Of a DNA stretch of 32,000 nucleotides, positions 7,776-26,718 are shown piece by piece. This DNA comes from Delftia acidovorans NBRC 14950 (lineage in GTDB: Bacteria; Pseudomonadota; Gammaproteobacteria; Burkholderiales; Burkholderiaceae_C): the NCBI RefSeq assembly GCF_001598795.1, contig NZ_BCZP01000017.1:30001-62000 (forward strand). Reading direction: 5' to 3'. The position numbers and the translations under genes are program-made. The notes beneath the pieces are model-generated. The model was not told the DNA's origin, ran no database searches, and saw nothing but the letters and a program-made list of their open reading frames with translations. The first letter of the stretch is position 1. The number at the start of each line of letters is the position of its first letter.

Positions 7776-7777
7776 TT

Positions 7778-8191
7778 CTAGGTCCCGGCAACGGCTGGCG
7801 TGTTGGCGATATCGCGCCAACCATGGGCAATCGGAGCCAGCACATCCTGCGCGCTTTGCAGCAGCGCCGCGTCGTTGCGCAGATTGGCCAGCGTCAGCTG
7901 GGTAATGCTGTAGTCGTAGACGGAAATCAGGTTCTGGGCCAGTTCGCCACCTTCATCGGGATTGACGGAGGCCTTCAGGCCTTCTTCCAGAATGCGAACG
8001 GCCTTGCCGATCTGCACTCCCTTCTCACCGATGTCGCCACGCTGCAGGGCTCCCTTGGCCGCGTTCAGCGATTTTTCAAGCGCGTCGAACAGCAGCTGGA
8101 TCAGCTGGTGGGGCGATGCGCCGTCCACGGAGGACTGGACGCCGACCTGGGCGTAGGCACTTGCAGCACGGCGGTTGAGCGATGTGTACAT
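7778..8191 (-). CDS. fliS: Flagellin-specific chaperone FliS
   Basis: Starts at ATG 8191, preceded by AAGGAAACGAAC on the minus strand. The sequence MYTSLNRRAASAYAQVGVQSSVDGASPHQLIQLLFD...IGKAVRILEEGLKASV...LISVYDY fits the FliS pattern. Confidence 0.9.
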   Translation of the reverse strand: MYTSLNRRAASAYAQVGVQSSVDGASPHQLIQLLFDALEKSLNAAKGALQRGDIGEKGVQIGKAVRILEEGLKASVNPDEGGELAQNLISVYDYSITQLTLANLRNDAALLQSAQDVLAPIAHGWRDIANTPAVAGT

Positions 8192-9888: not shown

Positions 9889-10767
9889 TTACTGGATCAG
9901 CTTGAGCACCGACTGGGGCAGCTGGTTGGCCTGGGCCACCATGGCTGTGCCAGCCTGCTGCAGGATCTGCGTGCGGCTAAGGTTCGCGGTTTCAGCGGCA
10001 AAGTCGGCGTCCATGATGCGCGAGCGTGCCGCCGATGTATTTTCAGCCGCCACCTGGAGGTTCGAGATCACGGCCTCAAAGCGATTCTGGGCAGCACCAA
10101 AAGTGGCGCGTGTATTGTTGATTTCGTCCAATGCCGTATCGATCGCGGCCATCGACAGGCGTGCGTCACCCGCAGTGCCGGTACCCGAACCGAGCAAGGA
10201 GCCCAGGGACCCGCCCAACGAAGGAGGCGTCGTTCCTGCATTGACTCCCAAACCACCCGGAGTGGAGCCTGTCAAATCCACTGCGGAAATCGTGATCTGA
10301 TTGTCAGGTCCGGTGTTGGCGCCCACCTGGAAGACTGTAGGACTAGAGCTATTCAGCAGGGGACGACCGTTGAAGCTTGTGCTTCCAACGATACGTGCAA
10401 TTTCCTGCGCCAGCTGCTGAAACTCTTTGTCCAGCGAGCCCCGATCGGTGGAGCCGTTGGTGTCGTTGGCAGCTTGAACAGCGAGTTCGCGCATGCGTTG
10501 CAGACTATCGCCGATCTTGCCCAGCGCGCCTTCGGCCGTCTGCGCCATGGAAATGCCGTCGTTGGCATTGCGCATGGCCACATTCATGCCTCGCACCTGA
10601 GCGTTCATGCGCTCGGCGATGGCCAGACCCGCCGCGTCGTCCTTTGCACTGTTGACACGCAGACCCGAAGACAGGCGCTGCATGGTCGTGCTCAGCGACG
10701 ACTGGGACGTGCTGAGATTGCGCTGGGCGTTAAGCGAAACAAGATTGGTGTTGATGATGGATGCCAT
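9889..10767 (-). CDS. fliC: Flagellin, short type (copy 1, 292 aa)
   Basis: The ATG at 10767 has AGGAG 6 nt upstream. The sequence reads [18 protein letters not shown]...[25 protein letters not shown]...[32 protein letters not shown]. The track start at 10818 is an upstream extension. Confidence 0.95.
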   Translation of the reverse strand: MASIINTNLVSLNAQRNLSTSQSSLSTTMQRLSSGLRVNSAKDDAAGLAIAERMNAQVRGMNVAMRNANDGISMAQTAEGALGKIGDSLQRMRELAVQAANDTNGSTDRGSLDKEFQQLAQEIARIVGSTSFNGRPLLNSSSPTVFQVGANTGPDNQITISAVDLTGSTPGGLGVNAGTTPPSLGGSLGSLLGSGTGTAGDARLSMAAIDTALDEINNTRATFGAAQNRFEAVISNLQVAAENTSAARSRIMDADFAAETANLSRTQILQQAGTAMVAQANQLPQSVLKLIQ

Positions 10768-10975: not shown

Positions 10976-11002
10976 AAAAAAACCCCAGGCAGATGCCTGG
11001 GG
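10976..11002 (-). terminator. Rho-independent terminator of fliC2
   Basis: On the minus strand: stem CCCCAGGC, loop ATCT, stem GCCTGGGG (11002-10983), followed by T7 (10982-10976). It lies about 50 nt after the fliC2 stop. Confidence 0.85.
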
Positions 11003-11054
11003 CTTGGAGAATTCCGGCCGCCTCCTGCTTGGGAAGGCCACCGGACTCGCACTA

Positions 11055-11906
11055 TCAGCGCAGCAGGGCCAGAACGCCTTGGGGCAGTTGGTTGGCCTGG
11101 GCCACCATCGCTGTACCGGCCTGCTGCAGGATCTGCGCACGGCTCAGGTTGGCTGTTTCCGATGCAAAGTCGGCATCCGTGATGCGGCTGCGGGCCGACG
11201 CGGTGTTTTCGGAAGCCACCTGCAGGTTGGAGATCACTGCATCGAAACGGTTCTGCGAGGCACCGAAGTCAGCGCGCTTGCCGTTGACGGCATCGATGGC
11301 GCTGTCCAGGGCAGTGACTGCCGTCAGGGCCGTGGCGGCCGTGGAACCCAGCGTTGCGCCGGCACCTGTACCCTGAGCCACGGTGCCCATGGCAGACGCC
11401 AGATCGGACGTGGTAATGGAGATCTGGTTGTCGCTTGCCGTGTTGGAGCCGATCTGGAACTGGAATGTGCCGGAATTGCCACCCGAACCCGTCAGCAGCT
11501 CCTGGCCGTTGAACTTGGTGTTCTTGATCACGCGGGCGTTTTCTTCGGCCAGCTGCTTGAATTCCTTGTCCATCGAGCCGCGGTCGGCCGTGCCGTTGGT
11601 GTCGTTGGCCGCCTGGACTGCCAGTTCACGCATACGCTGCAGGTTCTCACCGATCTTGCCCAGCGCGCCTTCTGCGGTCTGCGACAGAGAGATGCCGTCG
11701 TTGGCGTTGCGCACAGCCACGTTCATGCCGCGGACTTGGGCGTTCATGCGTTCGGCGATGGCCAGGCCAGCGGCATCGTCCTTGGCGCTGTTGACGCGCA
11801 GGCCGGAGGACAGGCGTTGCATGGTGGTGGACAGCGAGCTTTGCGAAGCACCCAGGTTGCGTTGGGCGTTCAGCGATTGCACGTTGGTGTTGATAGACAT
11901 GGCCAT
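11055..11906 (-). CDS. fliC: Flagellin, short type (copy 2, 283 aa)
   Basis: AGGAG 8 nt upstream of the ATG at 11906. The sequence reads [18 protein letters not shown]...[25 protein letters not shown]...[32 protein letters not shown]. Confidence 0.96.
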
Positions 11907-12403: not shown

Positions 12404-12628
12404 ATGCCCTCCATTGAACAATTCATCGAAAGCTTTCTGACCGCCGTGGACTTCCAGGAGGCCGTGGAAGTGACGCCAGAGACCGAACTCAAGCGCCTGC
12501 CCGAATGGGACTCGCTGGCCGCACTGGGCGTGATCGTCATGTTCGACGTCGATTTCGGCAAAACCATCACGGGCGACGATCTCAAGAACTGCGCGACCAT
12601 CAACGACCTCTACCAACTGCTGGGCTGA
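12404..12628 (+). CDS. Acyl carrier protein (stand-alone)
   Basis: 74 aa, with AGGAA at 12391-12395. It is small and acidic and carries a phosphopantetheine-attachment context LPEWDSLAALGVIVMFD. The track start at 12206 is an unsupported extension. Confidence 0.85.
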   Translation: MPSIEQFIESFLTAVDFQEAVEVTPETELKRLPEWDSLAALGVIVMFDVDFGKTITGDDLKNCATINDLYQLLG

Positions 12629-12633
12629 ACGAC

Positions 12634-13686
12634 ATGACGCTGTCCACCCTGCACAACGTGCGATTCGCGGGCATGGCCAGCTGCGTGCCACGGCAAGTCG
12701 TACACAACATCAACGACGTCCCCCCCCATCTGCGTTCGGAGCGTGAGCGCCTGGTGCGCAACATCGGCATACTGACACGCAGGGTCTGTCCGAGTTGGCA
12801 GTGCTTTTCGGACCTGGCGTTCGATGCCGCCGAAAAGCTGCTCACCGAGTTGCAATGGGCCCGCGAAGAGGTCGATGCACTGATCGTGGTCACCCAGTCG
12901 CCGGACTACCTGACCCCGGCCACGGCCATCATCTTGCAGGACCGCCTGGGACTGCCGCATGGCACCGTGGCCTTTGATGTCAACCTGGGTTGCTCCGGTT
13001 ATCCGTTCGCGGTGCAGATCCTGGGCTCCATGGTGGCCTCGGGCGTCGTCAAGAAGGGCTTGATCCTGCTGGGAGACCGGTCCAGCTACAAGCACAAGGA
13101 CTCGCTCAAGGACCCGCTGTTCTCCGATGCCGCCACGGCGACAGCGCTGGAATACCAGCCCGGAGCACCCCCCATGCATTTCGACCTGAACAGCGATGGC
13201 AGCGGACACAAGGCCATCATGGTCCCGGTAGGCGGGCATCGCCAGCCCTTTGAACTCGAACATGCGATTGCGCGCAAGGGTGAAGATGGCTTCTGGTACT
13301 CCAACCTGGACCTGGTGCTCGACGGCCCTGCCGTGCTGAGCTTTTCCACGCAGCGTGTCCCGCCCATGGTCGAGCGCCTGATGCAGTACTCCGGCAGGAA
13401 CAAGGAAGAGGTGGACTACTTCATCTTTCACCAGGCCAACCGCATGATCAACGAGACGATACGCAAGAAGCTCGGCCTGCCCGCCGAGAAAGTGCCGTCA
13501 TCCCTGCAGGAGTTCGGCAATACCAGCGGTGCTTCATTGCCGGTCACCATGACCACGCGCCTGCGCGATGCGCTGGCCGAGGGAAAAAAGCGGCTGTTGC
13601 TGTGCGGTTTCGGTGTGGGTCTTTCCTGGGGCGGAGCCATTGTGGAAGTGGAATCTGCCTGCTTTCCTGCACTGGTCGAGGCATGA
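12634..13686 (+). CDS. 3-oxoacyl-ACP synthase III (FabH/KAS III family)
   Basis: 350 aa from the ATG at 12634, 5 nt after the ACP stop. The catalytic triad contexts are VNLGCSGYPFA (Cys), YFIFHQANRMI (His) and EFGNTSGASLP (Asn). Confidence 0.9.
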   Translation: MTLSTLHNVRFAGMASCVPRQVVHNINDVPPHLRSERERLVRNIGILTRRVCPSWQCFSDLAFDAAEKLLTELQWAREEVDALIVVTQSPDYLTPATAIILQDRLGLPHGTVAFDVNLGCSGYPFAVQILGSMVASGVVKKGLILLGDRSSYKHKDSLKDPLFSDAATATALEYQPGAPPMHFDLNSDGSGHKAIMVPVGGHRQPFELEHAIARKGEDGFWYSNLDLVLDGPAVLSFSTQRVPPMVERLMQYSGRNKEEVDYFIFHQANRMINETIRKKLGLPAEKVPSSLQEFGNTSGASLPVTMTTRLRDALAEGKKRLLLCGFGVGLSWGGAIVEVESACFPALVEA

Positions 13687-14444
13687 TGGATCAGGATCCG
13701 TTCTCCCTGGCGGGGAAACGCATTCTGGTCACGGGGGCGTCTTCGGGCATAGGCCGGCAGGTCGCGCTGAGTTGCGCCGACATGGGAGCGCAACTGATCA
13801 TCACCGGACGGGACCCGCAACGCCTGCAAGCCACAGCCGATGAACTGCCCGGCAGCGGCCACTTGGCGGTGATTGCTGATCTTGCACAACCTGTCGATCT
13901 GGCTCGGCTGGTCGAGCAAACTGGCGTGATCAACGGTCTGGTGCATGCTGCCGGCATTTCCAGGCTGGTGCCTTTTCGCATGATCAGCCAGGCGCATCTG
14001 AGCGAGATGTTTGAACACAATACCTATGCTCCGATGATGCTGACCAAGGAGCTACTGGGCAAAAAGCGTGTGGTGGCCGGCGGCTCCATCGTGTTCATTT
14101 CTGCCCTGGCATCACACAGCGGGGCCCAGGCCACAGCAGCCTATGCCGCAAGCAAATCGGCCCTGCTGGGAGCCATGCGTTCACTGGCCATCGAAGTCGC
14201 CAAGCATGGCATACGTGCCAACTGCATCGCACCAGGTTACGTTCGCACCCCCATGCTGAACGGACTGAGCCAAGGCGGTGCCCAGATGGAGCGCCTGATT
14301 GAGCAGACACCGTTGGGCCTGGGCGATCCTCAGGATATAGCCTATGCCGCGGCCTTCCATCTCGCAGATGCCAGCCGCTGGATCACCGGCAACTACTTCA
14401 TCCTGGACGGAGGACTGAGTACCTCAATGGACATCTACGCATGA
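13683..14444 (+). CDS. Short-chain dehydrogenase/reductase, FabG-like (SDR 1)
   Basis: ATGA overlap with the KAS III stop. Motifs [11 protein letters not shown] and YAASK (YxxxK). 253 aa. Confidence 0.88.
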
Positions 14445-15181
14445 GCAGCGCGACCATCTCTCCCTTTTCCATGCAAGGAAAGACAGTGCTGGTCACAGGT
14501 GCCTCTTCAGGCCTGGGCAGGCACATCGCTATCACACTGGCGCGAAGAGGTGCTCGCTTGGTGATCACCGGGCGTGATGCGGACAGGCTGAGGCAATGCC
14601 ATGAAGCTCTGCAAGGCGAAGGCCATGTGCAGATCCTGGCCGACCTGACCCTGTCCAAGGACCGGGACCGCGTGGTCCAGGCCAGCATTGGCATCCATGG
14701 TCTGCTGCACTGCGCAGGACTGCATCAGGCAACCCCTGTCAATGCATTGACCGAAGAGCTCATGACGCGCATGTACCAGATCAATTTCCTGGCTCCTGTG
14801 ATGCTCACCCAGCACCTGCTGCAGGTCGGCGCCGTGGCGCAAAAAGGCTCCATCGTCTTCATGCTAGCCACCGCTGCGCACAGCGGCATGGAGGGACTAG
14901 GCCCTTATGCAGCCATGAAGGCCGGGCTGTGGGGTCTCATCAAATGCCTCGCACTGGAACAGGCTTCTCAGAAAATCCGCGTCAACGGTATCTCACCCGC
15001 AGTCATTGGCACGCCGCCTGCCGAGTCGGGCCAGCAGATCCTGGTGGCAGACAAGGCTCTCCATCCGCTGGGCCATGGCACGCCCGATGACGTTGCCCAT
15101 GCAGCCATCTACCTGCTGTCCGATGCCAGCCGTTGGGTGACAGGAACCAGCCTGATCCTCGATGGCGGAGCAGCGCACTGA
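14441..15181 (+). CDS. Short-chain dehydrogenase/reductase (SDR 2, paralogue of SDR 1)
   Basis: ATGA overlap with SDR 1. Motifs [11 protein letters not shown] and YAAMK. 246 aa. Confidence 0.88.
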
Positions 15182-15822
15182 TGAAAAGGGTCTACATCAT
15201 TGGTGCTGGTGGCTGGGGCCGGGAAGTCCTGGTCCAGATGTGTGATGCGGTCGAGCATGGACAGGACTGGAAGATCGCCGGCTTTCTGGATACACGGCCC
15301 CACATGCTCAACGGCATTGACTGCGGCGTGACCATCGTCGGAAGCCCCCTGACCCACATGCCGCAGCCGGACGAAGCATTCGTCTGCGCCATCGGCCTGC
15401 CACGCCCACGCCAGCAGTTTTCCCAGCCCATACTGGATAAAGGGGGTGAATTCATGCACGTACGCACCCCTTACAACACCGTAGGCTACCTGAGCGTGCG
15501 CGTGCATCTTGGTACAGGCTGCTTCTGGGCGCCACGCGTGCAAGTCAGCCCTGATGTCCACATCGGCGACTTTGCCAACATCCACAGCGGCACCGTGATA
15601 GGTCACGACGTGCATATCGGCAACTATGCGCAGATAGGCGCCATGACCTTCATCGGGGGAGGAGCGCAAATCGGCGACTATGCCATCGTGCATCCGCACG
15701 CCACGATCACGCCAGGCGTCAAAGTTGGCGAAGGCGCGACCGTGGGCGCCGGTTCTGTAGTGCTCAAAAACGTGCCCGCCGGCTCCACCGTGTTCGGCAA
15801 TCCTGCACGCGTGATCTTCTAA
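15181..15822 (+). CDS. Sugar N-acyl/acetyltransferase, PglD/NeuD/VioB-type left-handed beta-helix
   Basis: 213 aa from the ATG at 15181 (TGATG overlap with SDR 2). An N-terminal YIIGAGGWGREV Rossmann-like motif is followed by hexapeptide repeats: VHIGDFANIHSGTVIGHDVHIGNYAQIGAMTFIGGGAQIGDYAIV... Confidence 0.85.
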   Translation: MKRVYIIGAGGWGREVLVQMCDAVEHGQDWKIAGFLDTRPHMLNGIDCGVTIVGSPLTHMPQPDEAFVCAIGLPRPRQQFSQPILDKGGEFMHVRTPYNTVGYLSVRVHLGTGCFWAPRVQVSPDVHIGDFANIHSGTVIGHDVHIGNYAQIGAMTFIGGGAQIGDYAIVHPHATITPGVKVGEGATVGAGSVVLKNVPAGSTVFGNPARVIF

Positions 15823-15849
15823 AAACCCGAAGCCGACAGGAAATCTCTT

Positions 15850-16989
15850 ATGCGCTCGCGCATGCACCCAAAATATTATTTGTCTCAGGAAATCTTCGAG
15901 CGCGAACAGCAAAAGATCTTTCGCAAGGTGTGGCTGTTCGCAGGCCTTGTCTCCCTGTTGCCCAAGAACCATTCTTTCATCACACGCAAGATCGCGGGCA
16001 TTCCCGTAGTCATTCAAAATTTCAACGGAGAGTTGCGCGCTTTCGAGAACATCTGCCTGCACCGCAGCGCACCGTTGCAGCAAGGTTTCACGGGAACACG
16101 TCCGCTGGTGTGCGCTTATCATGCCTGGAGTTATGACAGCCAAGGCCAAGTGAAGAATATCCCGGATTGCGATGCAATCTATCGACTCGATGCCTGCGAA
16201 AGAAAATCCCTGAAATTACGGGAATTTTCTCTCAGGCAGATTGGCGGCCTGCTGTTCATCAATCTGTCATCCGACCCCATGAAGTTCGAGGAGCAGTTCT
16301 CTGCCCAATTCATTGAACTACTGCAAAGCAGTGCCGAATCCTATGACAGCGAAGTCATGATGACCACTTGGCATGCCAAATTCAACTGGAAGCTTGTCTA
16401 TGAGAATCTGCGCGACGTCAACCATGTGAAATACCTCCACGCCAAGAGTCTGGCCAAAGTTGCCAGCTTTCCATTCTCCGCAAAAGACGGAGCATCCATG
16501 GAGAAGATGGAGTTGGACTGCTCTCCAATCGGCCTGCGAAAGGATATGCGCACATTTAGCCATGGAGGAGCGGAAGGTGCGATCGAACCCATTCGCTGGG
16601 TTCCCTGGCTGGACAAGGTGGAGCGCTGGGGCGACACCAATGCCTATTTCAATTGGCTAACCTACCCCAATCTGCACATAGCCAGCGGAAATGGGGGCTA
16701 CTCCTTCACTATTGAACATCACGTGCCTGTGTCCCCGGGCGAGACCGATGTCGAGATTTTCTTCATTGCGGCCCGAAAAAAGGTGTCGTACGCCGATTCA
16801 GCGCAGGTGCTTTTGTCCCAAATGCACTACAGCAAGCAAGTCGTTGGAGAAGATATTGCCATTCTTGAAGCAGTACAGGCCGTCTTGCATGAAAAAGCGC
16901 CCCTTCCCACCCAGGGCGCTTACGAGTATGCCAATCGTCATATCGAGCGTTGGTACACCACCCTGATGGAGACAGACCATGAAATATAG
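15850..16989 (+). CDS. Rieske [2Fe-2S] non-haem iron oxygenase, alpha-subunit type
   Basis: AGGAAA 7 nt upstream. The Rieske motif is CLH-x16-CAYH (codons at about 16054-16122). The mononuclear iron motif D-x2-H-x4-H appears in ENLRDVNHVKYLH. 379 aa. Confidence 0.88.
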   Translation: MRSRMHPKYYLSQEIFEREQQKIFRKVWLFAGLVSLLPKNHSFITRKIAGIPVVIQNFNGELRAFENICLHRSAPLQQGFTGTRPLVCAYHAWSYDSQGQVKNIPDCDAIYRLDACERKSLKLREFSLRQIGGLLFINLSSDPMKFEEQFSAQFIELLQSSAESYDSEVMMTTWHAKFNWKLVYENLRDVNHVKYLHAKSLAKVASFPFSAKDGASMEKMELDCSPIGLRKDMRTFSHGGAEGAIEPIRWVPWLDKVERWGDTNAYFNWLTYPNLHIASGNGGYSFTIEHHVPVSPGETDVEIFFIAARKKVSYADSAQVLLSQMHYSKQVVGEDIAILEAVQAVLHEKAPLPTQGAYEYANRHIERWYTTLMETDHEI

Positions 16990-17605
16990 ATGGATTGTCG
17001 GCTGCGGTGACTTTTTAGATACCGCTTTTCATGCCTGGAAGCAATTCCGCCCCGATGAGCTGATTAAACGAGTCGAGGTCCGGCAAAATGCAGACTACGC
17101 CTTCGATTGCTCCGTGCTCGATACTCTAGACCCAGCTAAAGGTAGTGCCTTCATTGCGTTCAACGAGCGCTTTGGCAACTTTAAGCGCTTGGAGTTGATG
17201 CAGGCAGCCGTTGATCACGGGCTGAACCTGGAGCCGTTCATCAGTCCTATGGCCAACGTGGCCACCGATGTTGTCATCGGCCCCAACAGTTTCATCGGCC
17301 ACAACGCCTGCATTGGCCATGGCAGCCGAATAGACTTCAATACTGTCATCCACAACGGCGTCCAGATTGGCATCCGCAGCACCATCAACGCGTCCTGCTG
17401 GATTGAAAGCGGCGTGCAAGTGGGCGATAACGTAGAGATCGGTGCGCATGGCATTTTACGCATGGGGGCGATGATCAAGAAGGGAATCACAGTGGGGGAG
17501 GGCTGTGAGTTGGGTTGGCCCCGTCTTTATCATGAAGACATCCCCAGCAAAACGGTTTTTGATCTGAGATACGACGAACCAATATACGTTTACCCGGGCA
17601 CATAG
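16979..17605 (+). CDS. Atypical hexapeptide-repeat (LbH) transferase-like protein
   Basis: GGAGA 6 nt upstream, and an 11-nt overlap with the Rieske gene. The C-terminal hexapeptide repeats read VVIGPNSFIGHNACIGHGSRIDFNTVIHNGVQIGIRSTINASCWIESGVQVGDNVEIGAHG. The N terminus WIVGCGDF lacks the GxGGxG motif of LbH 1. Confidence 0.7.
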   Translation: MKYRWIVGCGDFLDTAFHAWKQFRPDELIKRVEVRQNADYAFDCSVLDTLDPAKGSAFIAFNERFGNFKRLELMQAAVDHGLNLEPFISPMANVATDVVIGPNSFIGHNACIGHGSRIDFNTVIHNGVQIGIRSTINASCWIESGVQVGDNVEIGAHGILRMGAMIKKGITVGEGCELGWPRLYHEDIPSKTVFDLRYDEPIYVYPGT

Positions 17606-17620
17606 AAATAGCTTCGCATC

Positions 17621-18841
17621 ATGAAGAAAAATCAAACCCACTCAGATATTCACACTTCCAAGCTGGAGGCAATATTTCTCGAATCAGCAACAGCACTGCG
17701 ATATAATCCACTGCTCGGCATTCCCCAGGACCTTTGCGACATCATTTCCCGGCAAGGTCCATCCGTACGGGTTTTTATTCTGGGCAGCAGAGGATTTTCG
17801 GAAGATATCATCCGAATCTCTCGCCAGGGAAAATTCGTTGTCGAGGCAGTCGTTGATGATTTTCTCTGCCAAAAGGAATCCACGCATCGTGGAATTCCAT
17901 TAATCTCCACCGAAGCCTTTCTTTCCAAAGCCTGCGGGCAGAGTGATGCGGTAGCCATCAACACCTGCGGCCACGACAAGCCGAAGTTCTTCTTCAACCA
18001 TGTGTGCCGTACCAATGGGATTCCACACTTGAGTTTTGAGCAATTCGTCAGAGCATTTGGCATCAGCGGTCTGCTCGATTTCCGGCTCGACGACTGGGGC
18101 CCATATATCGCAGACAACGTCGAAAGATACCAGCAACTGGCCCAGCGCCTGTCGGATGGTTATTCAGTACAAACACTTTATTCGATCCTGAACTACCGGC
18201 TTACCTGCGATCCAAGCCACTACTATGAAATCGAGCGCCCCTATTCAGCACTCTATTTCAGGTCTGGCCTGTTGAGCTTCGGAAAATCGGAAAAGATGGT
18301 GGACTGCGGAGCCTCTGTGGGCGAAGCGCTTATGGGTCTTGCCGAGGTCACCGACGGAGATTTCGCCCATAGCTGGCTGATCGAGCCTGATCGATTCAAC
18401 ATCCAGACGCTGCAGGCTTTGCGCCGCCGTTACGAAGGCTCGGCACTGGCCTCAAGAACCAGCATCCACGGTTGCGGCGTGGGCGAAACCCCATGCAGGG
18501 TTCCCTTCAAGCACGAAGGAGGCCATGGCAGCTCCATCCACGCGGCCGATTCAGCGTGCAGCGAGGAGGACATGATCGACGTGCGCCCGATAGATGAAAT
18601 CATTGACGATGCGCCCAGCTTCATCAAGATGGACGTGGAGGGTGCAGAACTGTCTGCCCTCAAGGGTGCCCGCCAGTCACTGAAGAACCATGCGCCCAAG
18701 CTGGCCATCTCCGCCTACCACCGGACATCCGATCTGCTGGAGATCACGGACTATGTCATGCAGCAGCAGCCCGGATACAAGATAGGACTGCGCCACCACA
18801 CCCATTTCCGCTGGGACACCTGCCTGTACTTCTATTCGTGA
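17621..18841 (+). CDS. FkbM-family SAM-dependent methyltransferase with an extra N-terminal domain of about 200 aa
   Basis: 406 aa. The C-terminal half has FkbM-type blocks MVDCGASVGEA and FIKMDVEGAELSALKGA. The N-terminal half (VRVFILGSRGFSEDII...VVEAVVDDF...GIPLIS) looks Rossmann-like. Confidence 0.8.
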   Translation: MKKNQTHSDIHTSKLEAIFLESATALRYNPLLGIPQDLCDIISRQGPSVRVFILGSRGFSEDIIRISRQGKFVVEAVVDDFLCQKESTHRGIPLISTEAFLSKACGQSDAVAINTCGHDKPKFFFNHVCRTNGIPHLSFEQFVRAFGISGLLDFRLDDWGPYIADNVERYQQLAQRLSDGYSVQTLYSILNYRLTCDPSHYYEIERPYSALYFRSGLLSFGKSEKMVDCGASVGEALMGLAEVTDGDFAHSWLIEPDRFNIQTLQALRRRYEGSALASRTSIHGCGVGETPCRVPFKHEGGHGSSIHAADSACSEEDMIDVRPIDEIIDDAPSFIKMDVEGAELSALKGARQSLKNHAPKLAISAYHRTSDLLEITDYVMQQQPGYKIGLRHHTHFRWDTCLYFYS

Positions 18842-18851
18842 TCAAGGCATT

Positions 18852-18871
18852 CATGCATGGTCACATGCATG
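18852..18871. terminator. Hairpin at the convergent junction (possible bidirectional terminator)
   Basis: Two copies of the self-complementary octamer CATGCATG (18852-18859 and 18864-18871) are separated by GTCA. They lie between the FkbM stop (18841) and the aminotransferase stop (18879). There is no U-tract. Confidence 0.3.
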
Positions 18872-18878
18872 TCCCGCT

Positions 18879-20096
18879 TCAATCAGCCAGCGTGACTGGG
18901 GCTGGCGCGCGCAAAGGTTGGCTTGGACTGGGAGGGCAGTTTCCCTGCAGGCTCTGGGTCACCACGTCGCACAGGCGCTGGCGCTGATCCCGTGTCATGT
19001 CCAGAAAAAACGGCAGGCCCAGCAGCGTCTCTCCCAGTTCACATGCATGGCGTATTTCCAACCGCAGGCACTGTGACTCCAGCACCGGCATCTGTTGCAA
19101 CAGCGGCTGATACCAACGGCGAGTTGCGATGCGGGCTGCCTGGCAGCCCGCCTCTAGTGCTGCGCGCGCGGCCTCCCCCGGCAGGCGTGTGCACAGCAGG
19201 GAAGGCGCCGCCAGGTGACCACCGCTACCCTGTGCTTGCCAGGACAAGCTGTGGCCACTGGCCTCATTCAATGCAGCGATCAGTTCGGCCTGTAACTCGC
19301 GCCTCTGCCTTGCGTGCTCGTCCCAGACTTGCAGCGAAGCCAAGCCGATGGCTGCGTGGTATTCGCTCATCTTGGCGTTACTGCCCATGGAGGCCAGCGT
19401 ACCGACCGGCAATCCTGCAGCGGGATTCAGGTTGATACCGAAATTGGAGAGCTGGCGCACCCTGGCAGCCAAATCCGGGCGCGTTGAAACAATAAGCCCG
19501 CCTTCGCCGGCCGGCAGGCTTTTCGTGGTGTGCAGACTGAAGACCAAGGTACCCTGCGCGCCTTGCAGCCACTGGCTTCCATAGGCAGCAGCTGCATCGA
19601 TGACTACGGGCAATCCGGTTTCCAATTCAAACTGCTGCCATGCCTGCATGTCATAGGGCATACCAAAAGTGGCGACGGGCAACACCGCATCGATGCGCAT
19701 CTGCTTGCAGGCCGCGTGTGCAATGGCAGGGGTCAGCATCCAGCTGGAAGGATCCACATCACCGATCACGGGCACGTGGCCTGCACGGATCACCGCAGTG
19801 GCAGTGGCCACGAAGGTAAAGGACGGCACCAGTACACGGGAACCTCGGGGCAGATCCAGCGCCTGCAGCACCAGCTCCAGCCCCAGAGTGGCATTGGCCA
19901 CCGTCGTCAGAGCATCACTGGGCACAGCAAATCGATGAGCGAACGCCGCCTCCAACTCCTGTACCAACGGGCCAAAGTTGGAATAGTGCCGTGCTGCATG
20001 CATGCGCTCCAACCAAGGCAACAAGGCCTTCGGCGCAGGCATGTCGGGCACCAGAAGCGGAATGGGATCCATGTTCGTGGGTCGATTGAGGTTCAT
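18879..20096 (-). CDS. DegT/DnrJ/EryC1/StrS-family PLP-dependent sugar aminotransferase
   Basis: 405 aa. The PLP-lysine context is FSLHTTKSLPAGEGG. The N-terminal part reads YSNFGPLVQELEAAFA. The ATG at 20096 overlaps the stop of the upstream GT gene (ATGA). An alternative start is Met9 at 20072. Confidence 0.88.
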   Translation of the reverse strand: MNLNRPTNMDPIPLLVPDMPAPKALLPWLERMHAARHYSNFGPLVQELEAAFAHRFAVPSDALTTVANATLGLELVLQALDLPRGSRVLVPSFTFVATATAVIRAGHVPVIGDVDPSSWMLTPAIAHAACKQMRIDAVLPVATFGMPYDMQAWQQFELETGLPVVIDAAAAYGSQWLQGAQGTLVFSLHTTKSLPAGEGGLIVSTRPDLAARVRQLSNFGINLNPAAGLPVGTLASMGSNAKMSEYHAAIGLASLQVWDEHARQRRELQAELIAALNEASGHSLSWQAQGSGGHLAAPSLLCTRLPGEAARAALEAGCQAARIATRRWYQPLLQQMPVLESQCLRLEIRHACELGETLLGLPFFLDMTRDQRQRLCDVVTQSLQGNCPPSPSQPLRAPAPVTLAD

Positions 20097-21745
20097 GCGA
20101 CAGCGTCCGCTTCGGCCAGCAGGGCGTCCAGATCAACGGCCGCACTCAAATTGCGGCGATCCCCGTTCAGCCAGTTGAGCCACATCAGACGGAAGGCCTT
20201 CTCCAGCTCGGCCGTCCGCTCGGGATAGTTCATCAGCACGCTGGCCTCCATGCTGGCGCGCGCGGTCAGTCGCTGTTGGCGCAGACGCTCGGGATCGTTC
20301 ATCAGCTGCAATGCGGCCTGCACATATTCCTGCTCGTTATTGGTGACCTCTCCACCGAAGCCCAGGCCGACAAGGGTTCGTGCCGTCGAGGCGTCAACAC
20401 CCCGCTCGGCATCCAGTGTCACGATGGTCAGCCCCATCCACAGGGCGTGCAACGTAGTGGTGCCACCGGAAACAGGTGATGTATCCAGCGCCACATCGGC
20501 GATATGCCCCAGTTCCATGAAGCGGTCCAGTGGCTGCTGATGCAGCACCGAGACACGATCCAACGGCATGCCAGCGTTTTGCACGCGTGGCAGCATATGG
20601 ATCTGGGCGGCCTCAGGCTCCTGCTCCTTGACCATGATGATCAGCCGTGCGTCCTGGCGCTCGTTCAGTATGCGCGCCCAGACGGACAGCATCTGGTCTG
20701 TAATCTTGGATGAACTATTGAGCGATATCAGCGTGGGATAGCCGTTGCGCAGCATGGGCGGCTCCTCACACAAGGGTGAGTATTCAGGTGGCGCATAGCT
20801 GGCCATGCAACTCAGTTGGAACAGTGCCTCCGAGTAGTAAGGAGCATGGCTGGGGGGAGCGATGCCGGCATCCACCAGACGGTAATCCATGGCCTTCATG
20901 CCCAGAGTGTGCATGTACCCAAGCCAGGTCACTTGCACTGGTGCCGCACGCCGGGCGAACACCTCCATCCGGTGGCCCAGGGTAAAGCCCGACAGGTCCA
21001 CGAGGATGTCGATGCCGTCAGCACGTATCTGGTCAACCAATTGCACCTCGGTCAGATCGGCAACCTCGCGCCAATTCGGCACCAACGCGCGCAACTGCGC
21101 AGTCACCCAATCGGGCTTGCCGCTGGAGTAGACATGGATTTCGACGTTCTCGGGATCATGGTGGGCCAGCACAGGACGCATGAAGAACGCCACCGAGTGC
21201 TCGCGAAAATCCGCCGTCACGTATCCGACCTTGAGACGCTTGCGCGGGTTGCGGTCGCGCCCTGGCAGCGGCGCTGACTTGCGCGTCAGCGGATCAGAAA
21301 AGCGCCTGCCCCAATCAGCGGCCACTTGCAGCGATCGCGCTGAATCGCTGCTGGTGTGCGAATGGATGTAGGCACGCATCATCCAATGCTGCCCATCGTT
21401 CTTTTTGTGCCGACAGGCCTCGTCAATGAGGTCGCAGGCCTGCTCGCGCTGGCCAGTGCTGAACAGCGCAAGGGCCAGCAGGCGCTGCGCATCAGGCATA
21501 CGAGGCTCCATCTCCAGGGCCGCCTGCAGGGCATCAACGGCCTTGTGCCAGATGGCCATGCGCACATAGACAAACCCTATGTGCAGCCACACATGGGCGT
21601 TACGCGGCTCCTGGACCACCAGTTGCGACAGTGCACCCAGCGCCTGTATGAACTGCATTTGCTCGACCATGGCGCGGACACGCGCAAGCTCCTGAGGGAT
21701 GCTGACCGGTGGCGAGGAAGTTTCGGCGAGTACGGAAGAAGGCAT
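20093..21745 (-). CDS. TPR-repeat protein with a C-terminal GT41 (SPINDLY/OGT-like) glycosyltransferase domain
   Basis: 550 aa. The N-terminal TPRs include AHVWLHIGFVYVRMAIWHKAVDALQAALEMEP... The C-terminal blocks are typical of OGT-like bacterial proteins: LKVGYVTADFREHSVAFFMRPVLAHHDPENVEIHVY and GIDILVDLSGFTLGHRMEVFARRAAPVQVTWLGY. Confidence 0.82.
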   Translation of the reverse strand: MPSSVLAETSSPPVSIPQELARVRAMVEQMQFIQALGALSQLVVQEPRNAHVWLHIGFVYVRMAIWHKAVDALQAALEMEPRMPDAQRLLALALFSTGQREQACDLIDEACRHKKNDGQHWMMRAYIHSHTSSDSARSLQVAADWGRRFSDPLTRKSAPLPGRDRNPRKRLKVGYVTADFREHSVAFFMRPVLAHHDPENVEIHVYSSGKPDWVTAQLRALVPNWREVADLTEVQLVDQIRADGIDILVDLSGFTLGHRMEVFARRAAPVQVTWLGYMHTLGMKAMDYRLVDAGIAPPSHAPYYSEALFQLSCMASYAPPEYSPLCEEPPMLRNGYPTLISLNSSSKITDQMLSVWARILNERQDARLIIMVKEQEPEAAQIHMLPRVQNAGMPLDRVSVLHQQPLDRFMELGHIADVALDTSPVSGGTTTLHALWMGLTIVTLDAERGVDASTARTLVGLGFGGEVTNNEQEYVQAALQLMNDPERLRQQRLTARASMEASVLMNYPERTAELEKAFRLMWLNWLNGDRRNLSAAVDLDALLAEADAVA

Positions 21746-22055
21746 GGCTATGGACCAGAGAATGCGCTATGGCACGGCAGGATGGAGCTTTGGCAACTAT
21801 CCACTTTTGCCCGCCGACCAATCCGCTGTTAAGCAGCCTAGTTGCAACGCACAAACAGACACCGTTTCCAGGTGCAGTTGCAGCTTTTGCCACACCATCT
21901 GCAACCGGCCAGACACATCACACCGCCCAGTTGGTCACCCCGAGACACACAAGCCGCTAAGCCACGGCCCCACAGGCAAGCACCTGCTGGAGCTTCGGAA
22001 AGACACAAGCTCTTAACGCTTTTGATCGCCCGCTCTGTCGAGCCGAGTTCTCATC

Positions 22056-23108
22056 TCAGGAATCCGAAGCCGGCATGGGGTGGCGCAGCCTCAGAGCCCG
22101 GGCCTCGTCCAGATTTCCGAGTTGCTCGTGCATCACGGCCAGATTGTGCGCCGCAAGATAGCTGCCCCGCCCCGCCACCCCGCCATGCGGGCCCGCATCC
22201 ACCTCTCCGATCTCCAGGCAGCGTTCCCAGGAAGCCTGAGCCATCGAAAGCCAGTGCTCAACCTGACCATCAAGCTTGGCAATGGCCGCATCCAGCAGGA
22301 CACCGCCCAGAGTGAAAAAGAAATCGGGCGAATCCTGCCATTTCGGCATCTGGGCCTGCGCCAGGGCTAAGCCCTCTTCATGGCGGCCCGCTTGCCCCAG
22401 GCAATAAAGGTGTCTGACGCACAGATCGTGCTCATAGCCACTCGACACTTCAAGTTGCTCCATCGCCACGCCATAGTGTGCGCACGCATTAGAGAAATCC
22501 CTGTTCAGTTCGAAGTCCACGCCCAGTTGGTAGTTGATATAGGCATCACGAGGATTTCTACTCAACTCCTGCAGAAGAAGACGCTGGTTTCTCCCCTGCT
22601 TGCGCGACATCTGCTCAGGCAGATATCCGTCATGCCGAATGACCAGCGGCACCAGCACACGTGGCAGGTCGGACGCGGGCTGTTCATGGACGACCCCTTG
22701 ATAACGCACCCCCCGTGGCAAAAGCCGGGTAATCCGCGAACGGCTCACCGCGCCGGTCACGCCCATTTCGTACAGGCTCTGGACGTCGGCAACCCCGAGT
22801 TGGCGCTCCATCGTCGGCAACCCTGCCAACCACGCGCCACCCTCAACCAGCCATTCATCGGCGTCGAGAACCAGGTTCCAGTTCGCATCCGCCAGATCGA
22901 GGGCCCGGTTGCGGGCAGCGGCGAAATCATCACACCACTCAAAGCGATGCACCTGCGCACCGCAGCTGCGGGCGATCTCCATCGTACGGTCCACGGAGCC
23001 CGTATCCAGCACCAGGACTTCGTCCACGAAGTCTTTGACGCTGTCAATGCAGCGGGCTATTGAGCGTTCTTCATCGCGCGCGATGATGACAAGAGCAGTC
23101 TGGGGCAT
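22056..23108 (-). CDS. Family 2 glycosyltransferase with C-terminal TPR repeats
   Basis: The GT-A signature reads ALVIIARDEERSIARCIDSV...VLVLDTGSVDRT...LVLDADEWL (DxD). The C-terminal TPR-like helices include YINYQLGVDFELNRDFSNACAHY and LAAHNLAVMHEQLGNLDEA. The start is uncertain. The domain boundary favours ATG 23108, which has no clear SD. The ORF remains open to the ATG at 23213. Confidence 0.8.
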   Translation of the reverse strand: MPQTALVIIARDEERSIARCIDSVKDFVDEVLVLDTGSVDRTMEIARSCGAQVHRFEWCDDFAAARNRALDLADANWNLVLDADEWLVEGGAWLAGLPTMERQLGVADVQSLYEMGVTGAVSRSRITRLLPRGVRYQGVVHEQPASDLPRVLVPLVIRHDGYLPEQMSRKQGRNQRLLLQELSRNPRDAYINYQLGVDFELNRDFSNACAHYGVAMEQLEVSSGYEHDLCVRHLYCLGQAGRHEEGLALAQAQMPKWQDSPDFFFTLGGVLLDAAIAKLDGQVEHWLSMAQASWERCLEIGEVDAGPHGGVAGRGSYLAAHNLAVMHEQLGNLDEARALRLRHPMPASDS

Positions 23109-23375: not shown

Positions 23376-23438
23376 AACAAGCAATCACCCGACTTTTCAG
23401 CCCAACGCCGTCACCGCGCGCGCTCACAATCCACTCCC

Positions 23439-24299
23439 ATGCTTGTCATCATCGGATACATCGTCGCCTTCGGTTGCATCTTCGGCACCTATGTGCTGCA
23501 CGGGGGCAACGTCCAGGTCATTCTCAAGGCCCTGCCCTTCGAGATGGTGACCATCGGCGGCGGCGCCATCGGCGCCTTCATCGTGTGCAACCAGCCCAAG
23601 GTGCTCAAGGCCACGGCCAAGGCCATCCCTGGCGTGATGAAGAGTTCACGCTACACCAAGGCCCGCTTCATGGAGCTGATGGCCTTGCTGTACGAGATTC
23701 TGCAAAAGGCCCGCAAGGAGGGCCTGATGTCCATCGAAAGCGATGTGGAGGCACCCAACGAGTCGCCCATCTTCACCAAGTACCCCGAGCTGCTGGCCGA
23801 CCACCATGTGGTGGAGTTCCTGACCGACTACCTGCGCATGATGGTGTCGGGCAACCTCAACTCCCATGAGATCGAGTCGCTGATGGACAGCGAGATCGAG
23901 GCGCATCACGCCGAAGCGCATGCCCCGGTCAATGCGTTGACCCGCCTGGCCGGCGCCCTGCCCGCCTTCGGGATCATTGCGGCCGTGCTCGGTGTGGTGA
24001 ACACCATGGGCTCGGTGGGCCAGCCGCCTTCCGTGCTGGGCGGCATGATCGCCTCGGCCCTGGTCGGTACCTTCCTGGGCATTTTGCTGGCCTACGCGCT
24101 GGTGGAGCCCATGGCCGGCCTGGTGGAGCAGCGCGCCCAGGATGCCGCCAAGGAACTGGAGTGCATCAAGACCACCTTGCTGGCCAGCATGCAGGGCTAC
24201 AACCCCGCCACGGCCATCGAGTTCGGCCGCAAGGTGCTGTTCTCCACCGAACGTCCCGGGTTCCTTGAACTGGAAACCCACGTCAAGGGCAAGAAGTAA
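23439..24299 (+). CDS. motA: Flagellar stator protein MotA
   Basis: 286 aa from the ATG at 23439 (MLVIIGYIVAFGCIFGTYVLHGG). Conserved C-terminal TM pair: ALPAFGIIAAVLGVV and GTFLGILLAYALVEP. The track start at 23292 is an extension. Confidence 0.93.
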   Translation: MLVIIGYIVAFGCIFGTYVLHGGNVQVILKALPFEMVTIGGGAIGAFIVCNQPKVLKATAKAIPGVMKSSRYTKARFMELMALLYEILQKARKEGLMSIESDVEAPNESPIFTKYPELLADHHVVEFLTDYLRMMVSGNLNSHEIESLMDSEIEAHHAEAHAPVNALTRLAGALPAFGIIAAVLGVVNTMGSVGQPPSVLGGMIASALVGTFLGILLAYALVEPMAGLVEQRAQDAAKELECIKTTLLASMQGYNPATAIEFGRKVLFSTERPGFLELETHVKGKK

Positions 24300-24323
24300 T
24301 CCTGCGTCCAGCAGCGTCAAGCC

Positions 24324-25361
24324 ATGGCAGAGAAAAAGTTACAGCCGATCATCATCAAGCGCGTCAAGAAGACGGCGCATGCACCCCACGGCGGTGCCTG
24401 GAAGATCGCCTATGCCGACTTCGTGACCGCGATGATGGCCTTCTTCCTGCTGATGTGGCTGCTGGGCTCCACGGCCAAGGGTGAGCTGCAGGGCATTGCG
24501 GCGTATTTTTCCTCGCCGCTGAAGGTGGCGATGGCCGGCGGCGACGGTGCAGGCAACAGCTCCAGCGTGATTCCCGGCGGCGGCAACGATCTGGCCAAGG
24601 TGCACGGCCAGGTGCGGCGCTCGGAGGCAGCGGACAGCTCCAACCGGCGCACCAGCGTCGATGCGGGCCGCGCTGACCAGGCCCAGGTGGATTCCAACCG
24701 CATCAAGGCGCTCAAGGCCAAGGTGGACGCAATGATCACCAGCAATGCGCGCCTCAACGAATTCCGCTCGCAGATCCGCACCGACGTGACGCCCGACGGC
24801 CTGCAGATCCAGATCGTGGACGAGCAAAACCGCCCCATGTTCGACAGCGGCAGCGCCATGGTCAAACCCTACATGCGCGACATCCTGCGCGAAGTGGGCG
24901 CGGCCCTGGCGGGCGCGGAAAACCGCATCAGCCTGTCCGGCCATACCGATGCCGCCCCTTACGGCAATGCCGACCGCGGCTACAGCAACTGGGAGCTGTC
25001 CTCCGACCGTGCCAACGCCTCGCGCCGCGAGCTGGTGGCGGCCGGCATGCCGCTGAACCAACTGGCCCGCATCACGGGCCTGGCCAGCAGCGACCTGCTG
25101 CTGCCCGATGATCCGCGTGCCCCGCAGAACCGGCGCATCACCATCACCGTGCTCACGCAGGAGGCTGAAAAGCGCCTGCTGGGCCACCGCGGACCTGTGA
25201 CACGCAACGCCTTGCCGCCCTCATTGGCCGGCGGCAATGGCGGCACGGCGAATGCGGCCACCATCGAATCCGCAACCGGCGAGACCGCTGCGCAGCCCGC
25301 CGCCACCTCGCCTGCAGCTGCCCCGTCTGCGCCCGCGTCACCTGATCGTGTAACAAATTAA
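24324..25361 (+). CDS. motB: Flagellar stator protein MotB
   Basis: The plug/TM region [22 protein letters not shown] contains the conserved Asp. The OmpA-like domain shows [26 protein letters not shown] and NRRITITV. An Ala/Pro-rich tail of about 60 aa follows. Confidence 0.93.
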
Positions 25362-25386
25362 GGTTTGCGCCCGATTCTGCCGAAAA
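25359..25386 (+). promoter_or_regulatory. Candidate FliA (sigma28) promoter for cheYZ
   Basis: TAAGGTTT-N12-GCCGAAAA against TAAAGTTT-N11-GCCGATAA (7/8 and 7/8, spacer one nt longer). The -35 element overlaps the motB stop codon TAA (25359-25361). Confidence 0.5.
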
Positions 25387-25485
25387 GCAGGAAAATTCCC
25401 ACATTGCGCCAAGAAGGTTTCATATTGTTACCATCGCGGCGGATTCTTACCAGTACCGAGCACCTACCGACCGAAAGGGCCTCAC

Positions 25486-25872
25486 GTGGCTAATGCCCTG
25501 CGTTTTTTGATCGTTGACGACTTCTCCACCATGCGGCGCATCGTGCGCAATCTGCTCAAGGAGAGCGGCTTTCCCGAAGCCGATGAAGCCGAAGACGGCG
25601 TCGTGGCACTGCACAAGCTGCGCAACAGCAAGTTTGATTTCGTGGTGACGGACATCAACATGCCCAACATGAACGGCTTCCAGCTGCTCACCGAAATCAA
25701 GCAGGACGACAAACTCAAGCACCTTCCCGTGCTGATGGTGACGGCCGAGGCACGCAAGGAGGACATCGTGGCAGCGGCCCAGGGCGGCGCGGCAGGCTAC
25801 ATCGTCAAGCCCTTCACCAAGGCCACGCTGGAAGAGAAAGTCAACCTGATCCTCAAAAAGCTGGGCCTGTAG
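25486..25872 (+). CDS. cheY: Chemotaxis response regulator CheY
   Basis: GTG start, with AAGGG 7 nt upstream. All CheY active-site contexts are present: [11 protein letters not shown] (acidic pair), [12 protein letters not shown] (phospho-Asp), LMVTAEA (Thr), YIVKPF (Lys). Confidence 0.95.
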
Positions 25873-25882
25873 GGCACGCGCC

Positions 25883-26497
25883 ATGAGCAACCCGGATGTC
25901 CCCGACAGCGTCCACTACAAGGTGGGCGTTCTCACGCGCCAGCTGCATGACTCGCTCAACGAGCTGGGCTATGCGGACCGATTGCGCGGCAGCATGGGAG
26001 AGCTGCCGGACGCGCAAAGCCGCCTTTCCTACATTGCGCGGCTGACCGGAGAAGCCGCCGAGAAGGTTCTGAACCGCGTCGAATTGGCCAAGGTCCAGCA
26101 GGACCGGCTGGCCGAGCGTGTACGCGCCATGCGGGCACAGATGGTCGAGGACCCCGTGGCGGCCGTGGCCAAGGGCCGGGTGATGAACTTCCTGGAGGAA
26201 GTCGAGCAGGGCACGCAGCAGGCCGACGAGCACCTTACCGAGATCATGATGTCCCAGGACTTCCACGATCTCACGGGCCAGGTCATTGCCCGCGTGGTCT
26301 CGCTGGCCGCCGATCTGGAGGACCAGCTGGTGCAGTTGCTCATCCAGACCTCGCCCAACCCGCAGCAGACGGCGCTGGAGCCCCTGGAAAAGCCCAAGGA
26401 GCACCTCGCCGGCCCCGTGGTCGATCCCGAAAAGACGCCCGACGTGGTGACTTCGCAGTCCCAGGTGGACGATCTCCTGGCCAGCCTGGGATTCTGA
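25883..26497 (+). CDS. cheZ: CheY-P phosphatase CheZ
   Basis: 204 aa. The catalytic-Gln context QDFHDLTGQVIARV and the CheY-binding C terminus VDDLLASLGF are present. Confidence 0.93.
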   Translation: MSNPDVPDSVHYKVGVLTRQLHDSLNELGYADRLRGSMGELPDAQSRLSYIARLTGEAAEKVLNRVELAKVQQDRLAERVRAMRAQMVEDPVAAVAKGRVMNFLEEVEQGTQQADEHLTEIMMSQDFHDLTGQVIARVVSLAADLEDQLVQLLIQTSPNPQQTALEPLEKPKEHLAGPVVDPEKTPDVVTSQSQVDDLLASLGF

Positions 26498-26718
26498 TCA
26501 CCCCGGGGGGCGCCCGGCGCCTCCCCTCTCATTGCAGGGCAGCCTCTTTCGCTTGGGCGCAAGGGGCTGACTGCCATCTTCGCGGCGCCCTTGCACCATG
26601 CGGCTGCCGTTCCTCCCCTTGTGCAGACAGCACATAAGCGCCGCTTGAGCCCCGCTTATCGGGGCTTCGCCTGCCTGGCTTGTTCCGACAATGACGCAAA
26701 TCCTTCCGTCATTGCGCC

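Follow-up and report, generated by a model that had tools for sequence, protein, structure and literature searches.

The 32,000-nt stretch of the Delftia acidovorans NBRC 14950 genome analysed here, which we call the window, is a chromosome segment carrying a complete flagellar gene set in which eleven genes (12404–23108) lie as an island between fliC and motA. Its open reading frames (ORFs) and their Pfam matches give the order flgHIJKL, a gene for an HDOD-domain protein, fliT, fliS, fliD, fliC, fliC, the island, motAB, cheYZ and flhBAF. An earlier note on this DNA, made from its letters alone, had described the same flanks, with fliD and flagellins of 292 and 283 amino acids (aa) to the left and motA and motB to the right. 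The gene content of the island, its intact motifs, operon structure and position, its conserved synteny and its hypervariability can be read directly. We think that the locus is a flagellin O-glycosylation island of three modules, a reading to which we give a probability of about 0.8.

All eleven island ORFs are intact at the coordinates first read from the sequence, and Pfam and NCBIfam profiles, applied with curated cut-offs, matched the domains originally proposed for them; the closest solved structures were taken from PDB matches. The eight plus-strand genes are spaced −11 to +27 bp apart, which fits a single operon. The first encodes an acyl carrier protein (ACP) of 74 aa (12404–12628; PP-binding 24.1 bits against a cut-off of 20.8; DSL motif, residue 36), which is 65–91% identical across orthologous cassettes. 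It is followed by a ketoacyl-ACP synthase III (KASIII), a FabH/VioS-like condensing enzyme (12634–13686; ACP_syn_III_C 4.6e-27; NF006829 218 bits; Cys119, His266 and Asn295), and by two short-chain dehydrogenases (SDRs): SDR1, a FabG/VioR-like ketoreductase (13683–14444; adh_short_C2 7.8e-48; TGASSGIG and YAASK), and SDR2 (14441–15181; adh_short_C2 2.3e-44; motifs present), the least conserved member of the cassette at 31–66% identity. Next come two left-handed β-helix (LbH) enzymes on either side of an oxygenase. The first is a NeuD/PglB/VioB-family N-acyltransferase of nucleoside diphosphate (NDP)-4-amino-sugars (15181–15822; TIGR03570 173 bits against a cut-off of 160.8; PglD_N and Hexapep), whose top PDB match is VioB 7txp (3.9e-20, full length), followed by PerB. 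The oxygenase is an alpha-only Rieske non-haem-iron enzyme (15850–16989; Rieske 8.2e-17; Ring_hydroxyl_A 2.5e-15; metal motifs), and its gene is overlapped by 11 bp by that of LbH2, a divergent second NeuD/PglD-like acyltransferase (16979–17605; Hexapep 8.1e-14). An FkbM-family methyltransferase of 406 aa closes the series (17621–18841; Methyltransf_21 4.5e-11, residues 228–386).

The three remaining genes lie on the minus strand. A DegT/DnrJ/EryC1 sugar aminotransferase (18879–20096; PF01041 6.8e-64; SLHTTK motif with the PLP lysine) overlaps by 4 bp the gene for a protein O-glycosyltransferase of the OGT/SPINDLY family (20093–21745), and its translation is predicted to be coupled to that of the transferase. 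The latter joins tetratricopeptide repeat (TPR) families at residues 27–130 to a C-terminal domain of glycosyltransferase (GT) family 41 (Glyco_transf_41 1.1e-46; PF13844 159.6 bits against a cut-off of 25); it matches the bacterial OGT homologue PDB 5djs at 2.8e-73 over residues 46–524, then SPINDLY and OGT, and a sequence-identical copy occurs on GCA_000741825.1. The third gene encodes a GmaR/SunS-like GT2 protein glycosyltransferase of 350 aa (22056–23108; SunS family 84 bits; DAD motif), with GmaR 22ao as its top PDB match (4.9e-20, residues 5–182) and SunS next. It had been called a GT2–TPR protein: the GT2 domain is clear (Glycos_transf_2 1.1e-14), whereas the TPR part is marginal only (E ~4e-3). 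The C-terminal half is helical with a weak TPR signal (E 0.004–0.007), and homologues are named TPR-containing GT2. Throughout the island, catalytic or cofactor motifs are intact in every gene open to checking: TGxxxGxG and YxxxK in both SDRs, CxH...CxxH and DxxHx4H in the Rieske protein, DxGAxxG in FkbM and SxHxxK in DegT.

The presumed acceptors lie directly to the left of the island, also on the minus strand: the short flagellins fliC1 (292 aa; 9889–10767; Flagellin_N 1.7e-46, Flagellin_C 5.9e-27) and fliC2 (283 aa; 11055–11906; Flagellin_N 5.1e-45, Flagellin_C 4.1e-25). The mechanical ORF of fliC1, with a TTG start, reaches 10818. A strong minus-strand terminator hairpin with an 11-bp stem and a T-run (10980–11005) separates the two genes, and fliC2 is therefore probably transcribed on its own. 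The earlier note had described both proteins as Ser/Thr-rich. Overall they are not exceptionally so, at an ordinary 18–19% Ser+Thr, but each does carry a Gly/Ser/Thr-rich loop at about aa 160–205 in place of the outer domains.

We collected motA loci from representatives of 80 Comamonadaceae species and placed the window's proteins on them; 56 of these loci reach at least 8 kb upstream of motA. The earlier note had asked whether fliC adjoins motA in relatives without the island; fliC is present with no GT41 gene within 10 kb upstream of motA in 19 of the 56 loci. A TPR-GT41 gene is found in 33, and in ten of these, from ten related species, it belongs to the window's own lineage (60–78% identity) and forms a conserved anchor beside motA; seven of the ten also carry the coupled DegT (63–75% identity, in Delftia, Comamonas and Acidovorax). 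The full acyl-chain/Rieske cassette recurs among these relatives only in D. acidovorans MMO-42, which is without the FkbM and GT2 genes. MotA is 100% identical between the two strains, and blastn gives 97.6% DNA identity over 23425–32000 but only 67–76% within the island; the right edge of the hypervariable segment falls at 23425–23438, 14 bp upstream of the motA start codon. Differing tailoring genes at one site, together with this sharp contrast in identity, therefore mark the island as hypervariable. Hypervariability between conserved flanks is typical of glycosylation islands. The GT41–DegT pair beside motA is a vertically retained anchor next to which cassettes are exchanged. The GT2 gene, inserted between GT41 and motA, is absent there from all 80 species representatives and is, by this comparison, a strain-specific insertion.

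Composition also differs along the segment. GC content at third codon positions is 0.83–0.90 in the flagellar backbone and 0.63–0.80 in the island, with the lowest values (0.63–0.65) in the Rieske, LbH2 and FkbM genes; a contrast of this kind is likewise typical of glycosylation islands. Overall GC is 0.52–0.54 across these three (15850–18841), about 0.61 in the other island genes and 0.65–0.70 in the backbone, and the drop starts at the junction of the VioB-like and Rieske genes. A mobile-element origin was considered and rejected: the window holds no tRNA, integrase or insertion-sequence ORF, as had been noted earlier, and no flanking repeats. Homologous recombination within the conserved flanks accounts better for the exchange.

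Other occupants of the same site illustrate its range. D. tsuruhatensis NBRC 16741 (locus L006, 1–9651) carries a nucleotidyltransferase, a 4,6-dehydratase, a 451-aa RfbH-like DegT, an epimerase/reductase, a GT2 and a PglD-like gene, and keeps the DegT–GT41 pair beside them; this variant looks like a self-contained dideoxyhexose-type pathway. In a Paracidovorax sp. (locus L041, 364–9853), a methyltransferase, a radical-SAM/SPASM enzyme, a fusion of LbH with MptE (Maf-like) and an FkbM gene lie upstream of DegT–GT41 and motA. Another D. tsuruhatensis strain (locus L088, 8001–17062) has motA, a GmaR-like GT2, a 933-aa TPR-GT41 and four tandem flagellin genes, and would represent a minimal, two-transferase version of the island with no sugar-synthesis genes. 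Pairs of GT2 and TPR-GT41 genes beside fliC occur in that strain and in Azohydromonas and Malikia, two of the three without sugar-synthesis genes, and a GT2 homologue adjoined a TPR-GT41 gene in four of the six loci examined.

The tailoring genes themselves are widespread. Across 16 loci with an orthologue of the Rieske gene, ten of which, the window included, have readable flanks, the genes for ACP, KASIII, two SDRs, the VioB-like enzyme, the Rieske protein and LbH2 behave as a fixed seven-gene cassette. LbH2 lies immediately 3′ of the Rieske gene in 16 of 16, with an overlap of about 10 bp wherever genes were called; the VioB-like gene lies 5′ of it in 15, and ACP–KASIII–SDR–SDR precede wherever the contig extends far enough. 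The order in the window is that of all 16 loci save L096, and its cassette is 55–82% identical to those of L085, L086 and L087. An FkbM-family gene usually follows. The Rieske and LbH2 genes, which the earlier note had taken as signs of an unusual gene set, are thus fixed parts of a common one. Seven of the ten cassettes with readable flanks are flagellar: those of the window, of MMO-42, of Xanthomonas (fleQ–fliE), of Pseudomonas sp. ABC1 and P. dryadis (both flgL–fliC), of a metagenomic contig with fliD and fliC, and of Candidatus Burkholderia verschuerenii, beside fliA and flhF. Two Methylobacillus-type cassettes adjoin GT41–DegT, one of them also with Maf-like and CMP-sugar genes, and the tenth lies in a pilus locus of Variovorax. 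The earlier note had held that its flagellin assignment would fall if the closest clusters sat consistently in O-antigen or capsule loci; none of the ten does. The flagellin-glycosylation reading is therefore well supported by comparison of loci, although the novelty claimed for the island was overstated.

Methylobacillus and Pseudomonas copies resemble the window's cassette more (KASIII 81–82%, VioB-like 69–76%, Rieske 70%) than the conspecific copy does (72, 56 and 61% for the same three proteins), a pattern that points to horizontal exchange of whole cassettes. The FkbM gene is 51–55% identical in L087 and L174 and absent from the conspecific locus.

How might these genes work together? In the first module, the eight-gene operon would tailor a viosamine-type NDP-4-amino-4,6-dideoxyhexose. 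Its precursor, NDP-4-keto-6-deoxyhexose, would come from housekeeping enzymes of the RmlA/RmlB type elsewhere in the genome; the ORFs of the 32-kb window include neither a nucleotidyltransferase nor a 4,6-dehydratase, in agreement with the original suggestion that precursors are drawn from outside the island. DegT, in the second module with GT41, would transaminate this precursor to the 4-amino sugar. An acetoacetyl unit would be loaded by KASIII onto the dedicated ACP and reduced by an SDR to a 3-hydroxyacyl chain, which the VioB-like enzyme would transfer to the 4-amino group; the closest structures to this enzyme, VioB and PerB, are both N-acetyltransferases of NDP-4-amino-4,6-dideoxyhexoses. 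The Rieske enzyme may then hydroxylate the sugar or the acyl chain, with the coupled LbH2 adding a further acyl group, and FkbM may O-methylate the product. GT41 would move the finished sugar onto flagellin Ser/Thr residues in the cytoplasm, its TPR domain recognizing the protein, and in the third module the GmaR-like GT2 would place a second, housekeeping-made sugar on flagellin. Aminotransfer, 3-hydroxyacyl synthesis, N-acylation and methylation follow from family knowledge and from the Pseudomonas syringae pathway (PMC3927599) and are probable by that analogy; the roles given to Rieske and LbH2, and the way in which the two transferases share the work, are speculative.

The closest biochemical precedent is the island of P. 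syringae, in which mutants of vioA, vioB, vioS, vioR, acp and vioM lose or alter modified viosamine on flagellin, as seen by mass spectrometry, and whose product for flagellin is dTDP-N-(3-hydroxy-1-oxobutyl)-2-O-methylviosamine (PMC3927599). It shares with the window an aminotransferase, ACP, KASIII, a ketoreductase, a VioB-type acyltransferase and a methyltransferase, and these shared classes, with the cassette locations, favour the viosamine-island logic proposed at the outset. Like the a-type orfA–orfN island of P. aeruginosa PAK (PMC3927599), it varies between strains. It has, however, no Rieske gene, second LbH or second SDR, all present in the window, from which we predict a different product; its methyltransferase is 241 aa long against 406 aa for the window's FkbM. 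VioT, its 1173-aa transferase, attaches the sugar to a rhamnose primer that Fgt1 and Fgt2 have put in place, whereas no VioT- or Fgt1-type transferase is found among the window's ORFs, nor Fgt2.

A close match in gene content is a Xanthomonas locus (L085) with exactly ten genes between rpoN2-vemR-fleQ and fliE, for DegT, ACP, KASIII, two SDRs, a VioB-like enzyme, a Rieske protein, LbH, FkbM and a 1174-aa tandem-GT2 protein. Its seven genes from ACP to LbH2 are syntenic with the window's and 55–69% identical. The differences lie around them: the fleQ–fliE rather than the fliC–motA site, a VioA-type DegT at the head that is 29% identical, an FkbM that is 26% identical, and a VioT-type tandem-GT2 tail in place of the TPR-GT41 and GmaR-like GT2. 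More generally, the window's DegT is only 27–30% identical to the VioA-type DegT proteins of Xanthomonas and Pseudomonas (L085, L086 and L174). X. oryzae pv. oryzae has a ten-gene island for flagellin glycosylation, gigX1–gigX10 (Yu et al. 2018, Mol Plant Pathol 19:579, cited in PMC8657755 and bioRxiv 10.1101/453373), and the Xanthomonas locus agrees with it in the reported number, regulation and location of the genes. The Xanthomonas Rieske orthologue also shares a cluster of 90% identity or more with a protein fragment from X. oryzae. Most likely, then, the Delftia island is a mosaic example of the flagellin glycosylation islands known from Xanthomonas and Pseudomonas rather than a new system, built from a cassette that genetics has already linked to flagellin glycosylation in Xanthomonas.

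Three further systems resemble single parts of it. Acidovorax avenae K1, also of the Comamonadaceae, has an island in the flagellar operon (Fgt, Fmt, Fcs and Fst) that sets strain-specific flagellin glycans (PMC4622738). It shares a place among flagellar genes and the combination of a glycosyltransferase and a sugar transaminase with variable tailoring genes, which in K1 are a methyltransferase and a carbamoyl-phosphate-synthase-like enzyme as opposed to the window's ACP, KASIII, Rieske and LbH proteins. Paracidovorax and Acidovorax genomes carry, beside motA, GT41 and DegT proteins 63–64% and 72% identical to the window's; the Paracidovorax locus described above was considered as a K1-type Fgt–Fmt–Fcs–Fst island and carries a different variant. 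The GT2 recalls GmaR of Listeria monocytogenes, a flagellin O-GlcNAc transferase with a C-terminal anti-repressor domain (PMC9638930): in both an N-terminal GT-A domain precedes a helical region, which in the window's protein gives a weak TPR signal, and both genes lie in flagellar loci. GmaR is nonetheless longer (637 against 350 aa), the window's protein is without the linker and MogR anti-repressor domains, and the two do not align beyond the GT domain. Finally, FlmQ (BCAL0111) of Burkholderia cenocepacia is a betaproteobacterial flagellin glycosyltransferase encoded beside fliC (PMC4462625). Its sugar-synthesis genes lie away from the transferase and include no Rieske–LbH pair. FlmQ is reported by Hanuszkiewicz et al. 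(2014) to attach 4-(3-hydroxybutanoylamino)-4,6-dideoxyglucose directly to flagellin; this is the type of sugar predicted for the window.

Homologues of the Rieske protein at 54–86% identity occur in Xanthomonas, Pseudomonas, Methylobacillus, Burkholderia, Variovorax and Comamonas, and a metagenome scan separates an orthologue clade at 54% identity or more from next relatives at 35% or less. Its best PDB matches (Stc2, GbcA and CntA) are confined to the N-terminal 200 aa. A model built from a 16-sequence alignment reached a pLDDT of 41 and a single-sequence model of FkbM a pLDDT of 35, both too poor for a fold search. On a Methylobacillus-like metagenomic contig, LbH2 is directly followed by a second Rieske paralogue (L093, 11759–12739) with 41% identity to that of the window, and two Delftia relatives (L007 and L009) have a distant Rieske protein (26%) after the VioB-like gene, followed in turn by a GDSL acylhydrolase in L007. 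LbH2 scores 78.5 bits against TIGR03570, under the cut-off, has PerB as its top PDB match (1.7e-6) and is 29% identical to its VioB-like paralogue over the LbH part. It is split into two fragments in Ca. B. verschuerenii, a leaf symbiont with a reduced genome (L173, 6051–6673), and on a metagenomic contig (L097, 1644–2260), where the cassette may be decaying. FkbM carries a 220-aa N-terminal extension, which had been taken as peculiar to this island. It is not: PDB 2py6 ('Methyltransferase FkbM', 409 aa) matches over the full length, extension included, at E 1.8e-156, so a solved structure exists for this step of the pathway. That entry is a structural-genomics structure from Methylobacillus flagellatus.

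Several observations weigh against a flagellin island or against the pathway drawn for it. The window has no NDP-sugar activation genes for donor supply, nearby genes encode neither a ferredoxin nor a reductase to serve the Rieske enzyme, and the nearest solved relatives of DegT (3ju7 and ArnB) leave the position of amination unfixed. In L096 the VioB-like gene is missing and LbH2 is kept, so the roles assigned to the two LbH enzymes could be reversed. Our literature search found no paper on flagellin glycosylation in Delftia, and that the Xanthomonas locus is the gigX island we infer from position and gene count. Two GT2 homologues lie in non-flagellar contexts, and the Variovorax cassette, with its DegT and TPR-GT41, is part of a type IV pilus locus, so that specificity for flagellin is intrinsic neither to the cassette nor to the GT2 family. 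That cassette (Variovorax sp. metagenome-assembled genome GCA_017744935.1; L175, 5857–14948) is complete, 57–74% identical to the window's and accompanied by a 649-aa TPR-GT41. A type IV pilin gene lies immediately upstream of it and pilY1 and pilW adjoin it, an arrangement that suggests a cytoplasmic, GT41-type pilin glycosylation system.

These last findings speak for an acceptor other than flagellin, with TPR targeting directing the island to a different flagellar protein, a pilin or an adhesin, instead of or besides flagellin. The GT2 homologues outside flagellar loci are 51% identical to the window's, and the acceptor specificity of a TPR-GT41 cannot be read from its sequence. We consider such an acceptor unlikely here, for the Variovorax transferase belongs to a separate lineage (33% identity), the window's GT41 lineage (at least 60% identity) is found only beside motA and fliC, and the two flagellins are the only plausible neighbouring acceptors in the window. 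A flagellar position that is incidental, with the sugar feeding a lipid-linked glycan such as O-antigen, capsule or lipid A/core, is less likely still. VioB/PerB-type acyltransferases and DegT aminotransferases are indeed common in O-antigen clusters, and the flagellin sugar of B. cenocepacia reportedly shares precursors with O-antigen synthesis. Yet Wzx, Wzy, Wzz, an ABC exporter and a polyprenyl-phosphate priming transferase are all missing from the island, its two glycosyltransferases are of soluble kinds that act on proteins, and no cassette with readable flanks lies in a lipopolysaccharide or capsule locus. It would be more surprising again if ACP, KASIII, SDR, Rieske and FkbM made a small acylated secondary metabolite or signalling lipid, with no glycosylation at all. 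Such enzyme classes are typical of natural-product clusters, and the nearest solved relatives of the Rieske protein act on small quaternary amines, but the NDP-amino-sugar N-acyltransferase is always in the cassette, DegT and a protein glycosyltransferase always accompany it, and the same enzyme classes build the P. syringae flagellin sugar, as mutant mass spectrometry shows (PMC3927599).

Three points remain of interest: the chemistry of the conserved Rieske–LbH2 pair, the presence side by side of two protein glycosyltransferases that are both of TPR type yet unrelated, and the association of cassette and GT41 in a pilus locus. We tentatively propose, as a possibility that is rather doubtful at present, that Rieske and LbH2 act as a hydroxylate-then-acylate unit on a nucleotide-activated amino sugar or its N-acyl chain, that the cassette is a portable one serving varied cytoplasmic protein-glycosylation systems, and that two transferases place two glycans on the Delftia flagellins. 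Our literature search found no description of such chemistry for bacterial protein glycans and no link between Rieske oxygenases and flagellin glycosylation islands. Were the proposal right, one cassette would serve VioT-type transferases in Xanthomonas and Pseudomonas and TPR-GT41 in Comamonadaceae and Methylophilaceae, and the Variovorax copy would mark a GT41-type cytoplasmic route to pilin glycosylation.

Flagellin glycans influence how cells move, how stable the filament is and how immune systems and phages recognize it, and the islands that encode them evolve fast. Delftia, an environmental and opportunistic genus, would join the organisms with such an island, and its locus offers a view of how one is assembled, from a vertically kept transferase–aminotransferase anchor and exchangeable tailoring cassettes. 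The Rieske–LbH pair is common to the cassettes of the plant pathogens Xanthomonas and Pseudomonas and of Delftia, and 2py6, solved without functional annotation, probably belongs to the same pathway. A glycan worked out in any single organism would annotate hundreds of genomes.

An Rfam search and a scan for the sigma-28 consensus gave no match in the window, sigma-54-like matches numbered 5 where chance alone would give 5.4, and sigma-70-like sites were fewer than chance. A plus-strand ORF outside the island (7350–7781, 143 aa) is probably not a gene: fliT and fliS lie across it on the other strand, its third-position GC content is low (0.63) and it matches no Pfam family. Between flgL and fliT, the flagellar cluster also encodes the HDOD-domain protein (430 aa, 6039–7331), which may be a signalling or regulatory component.

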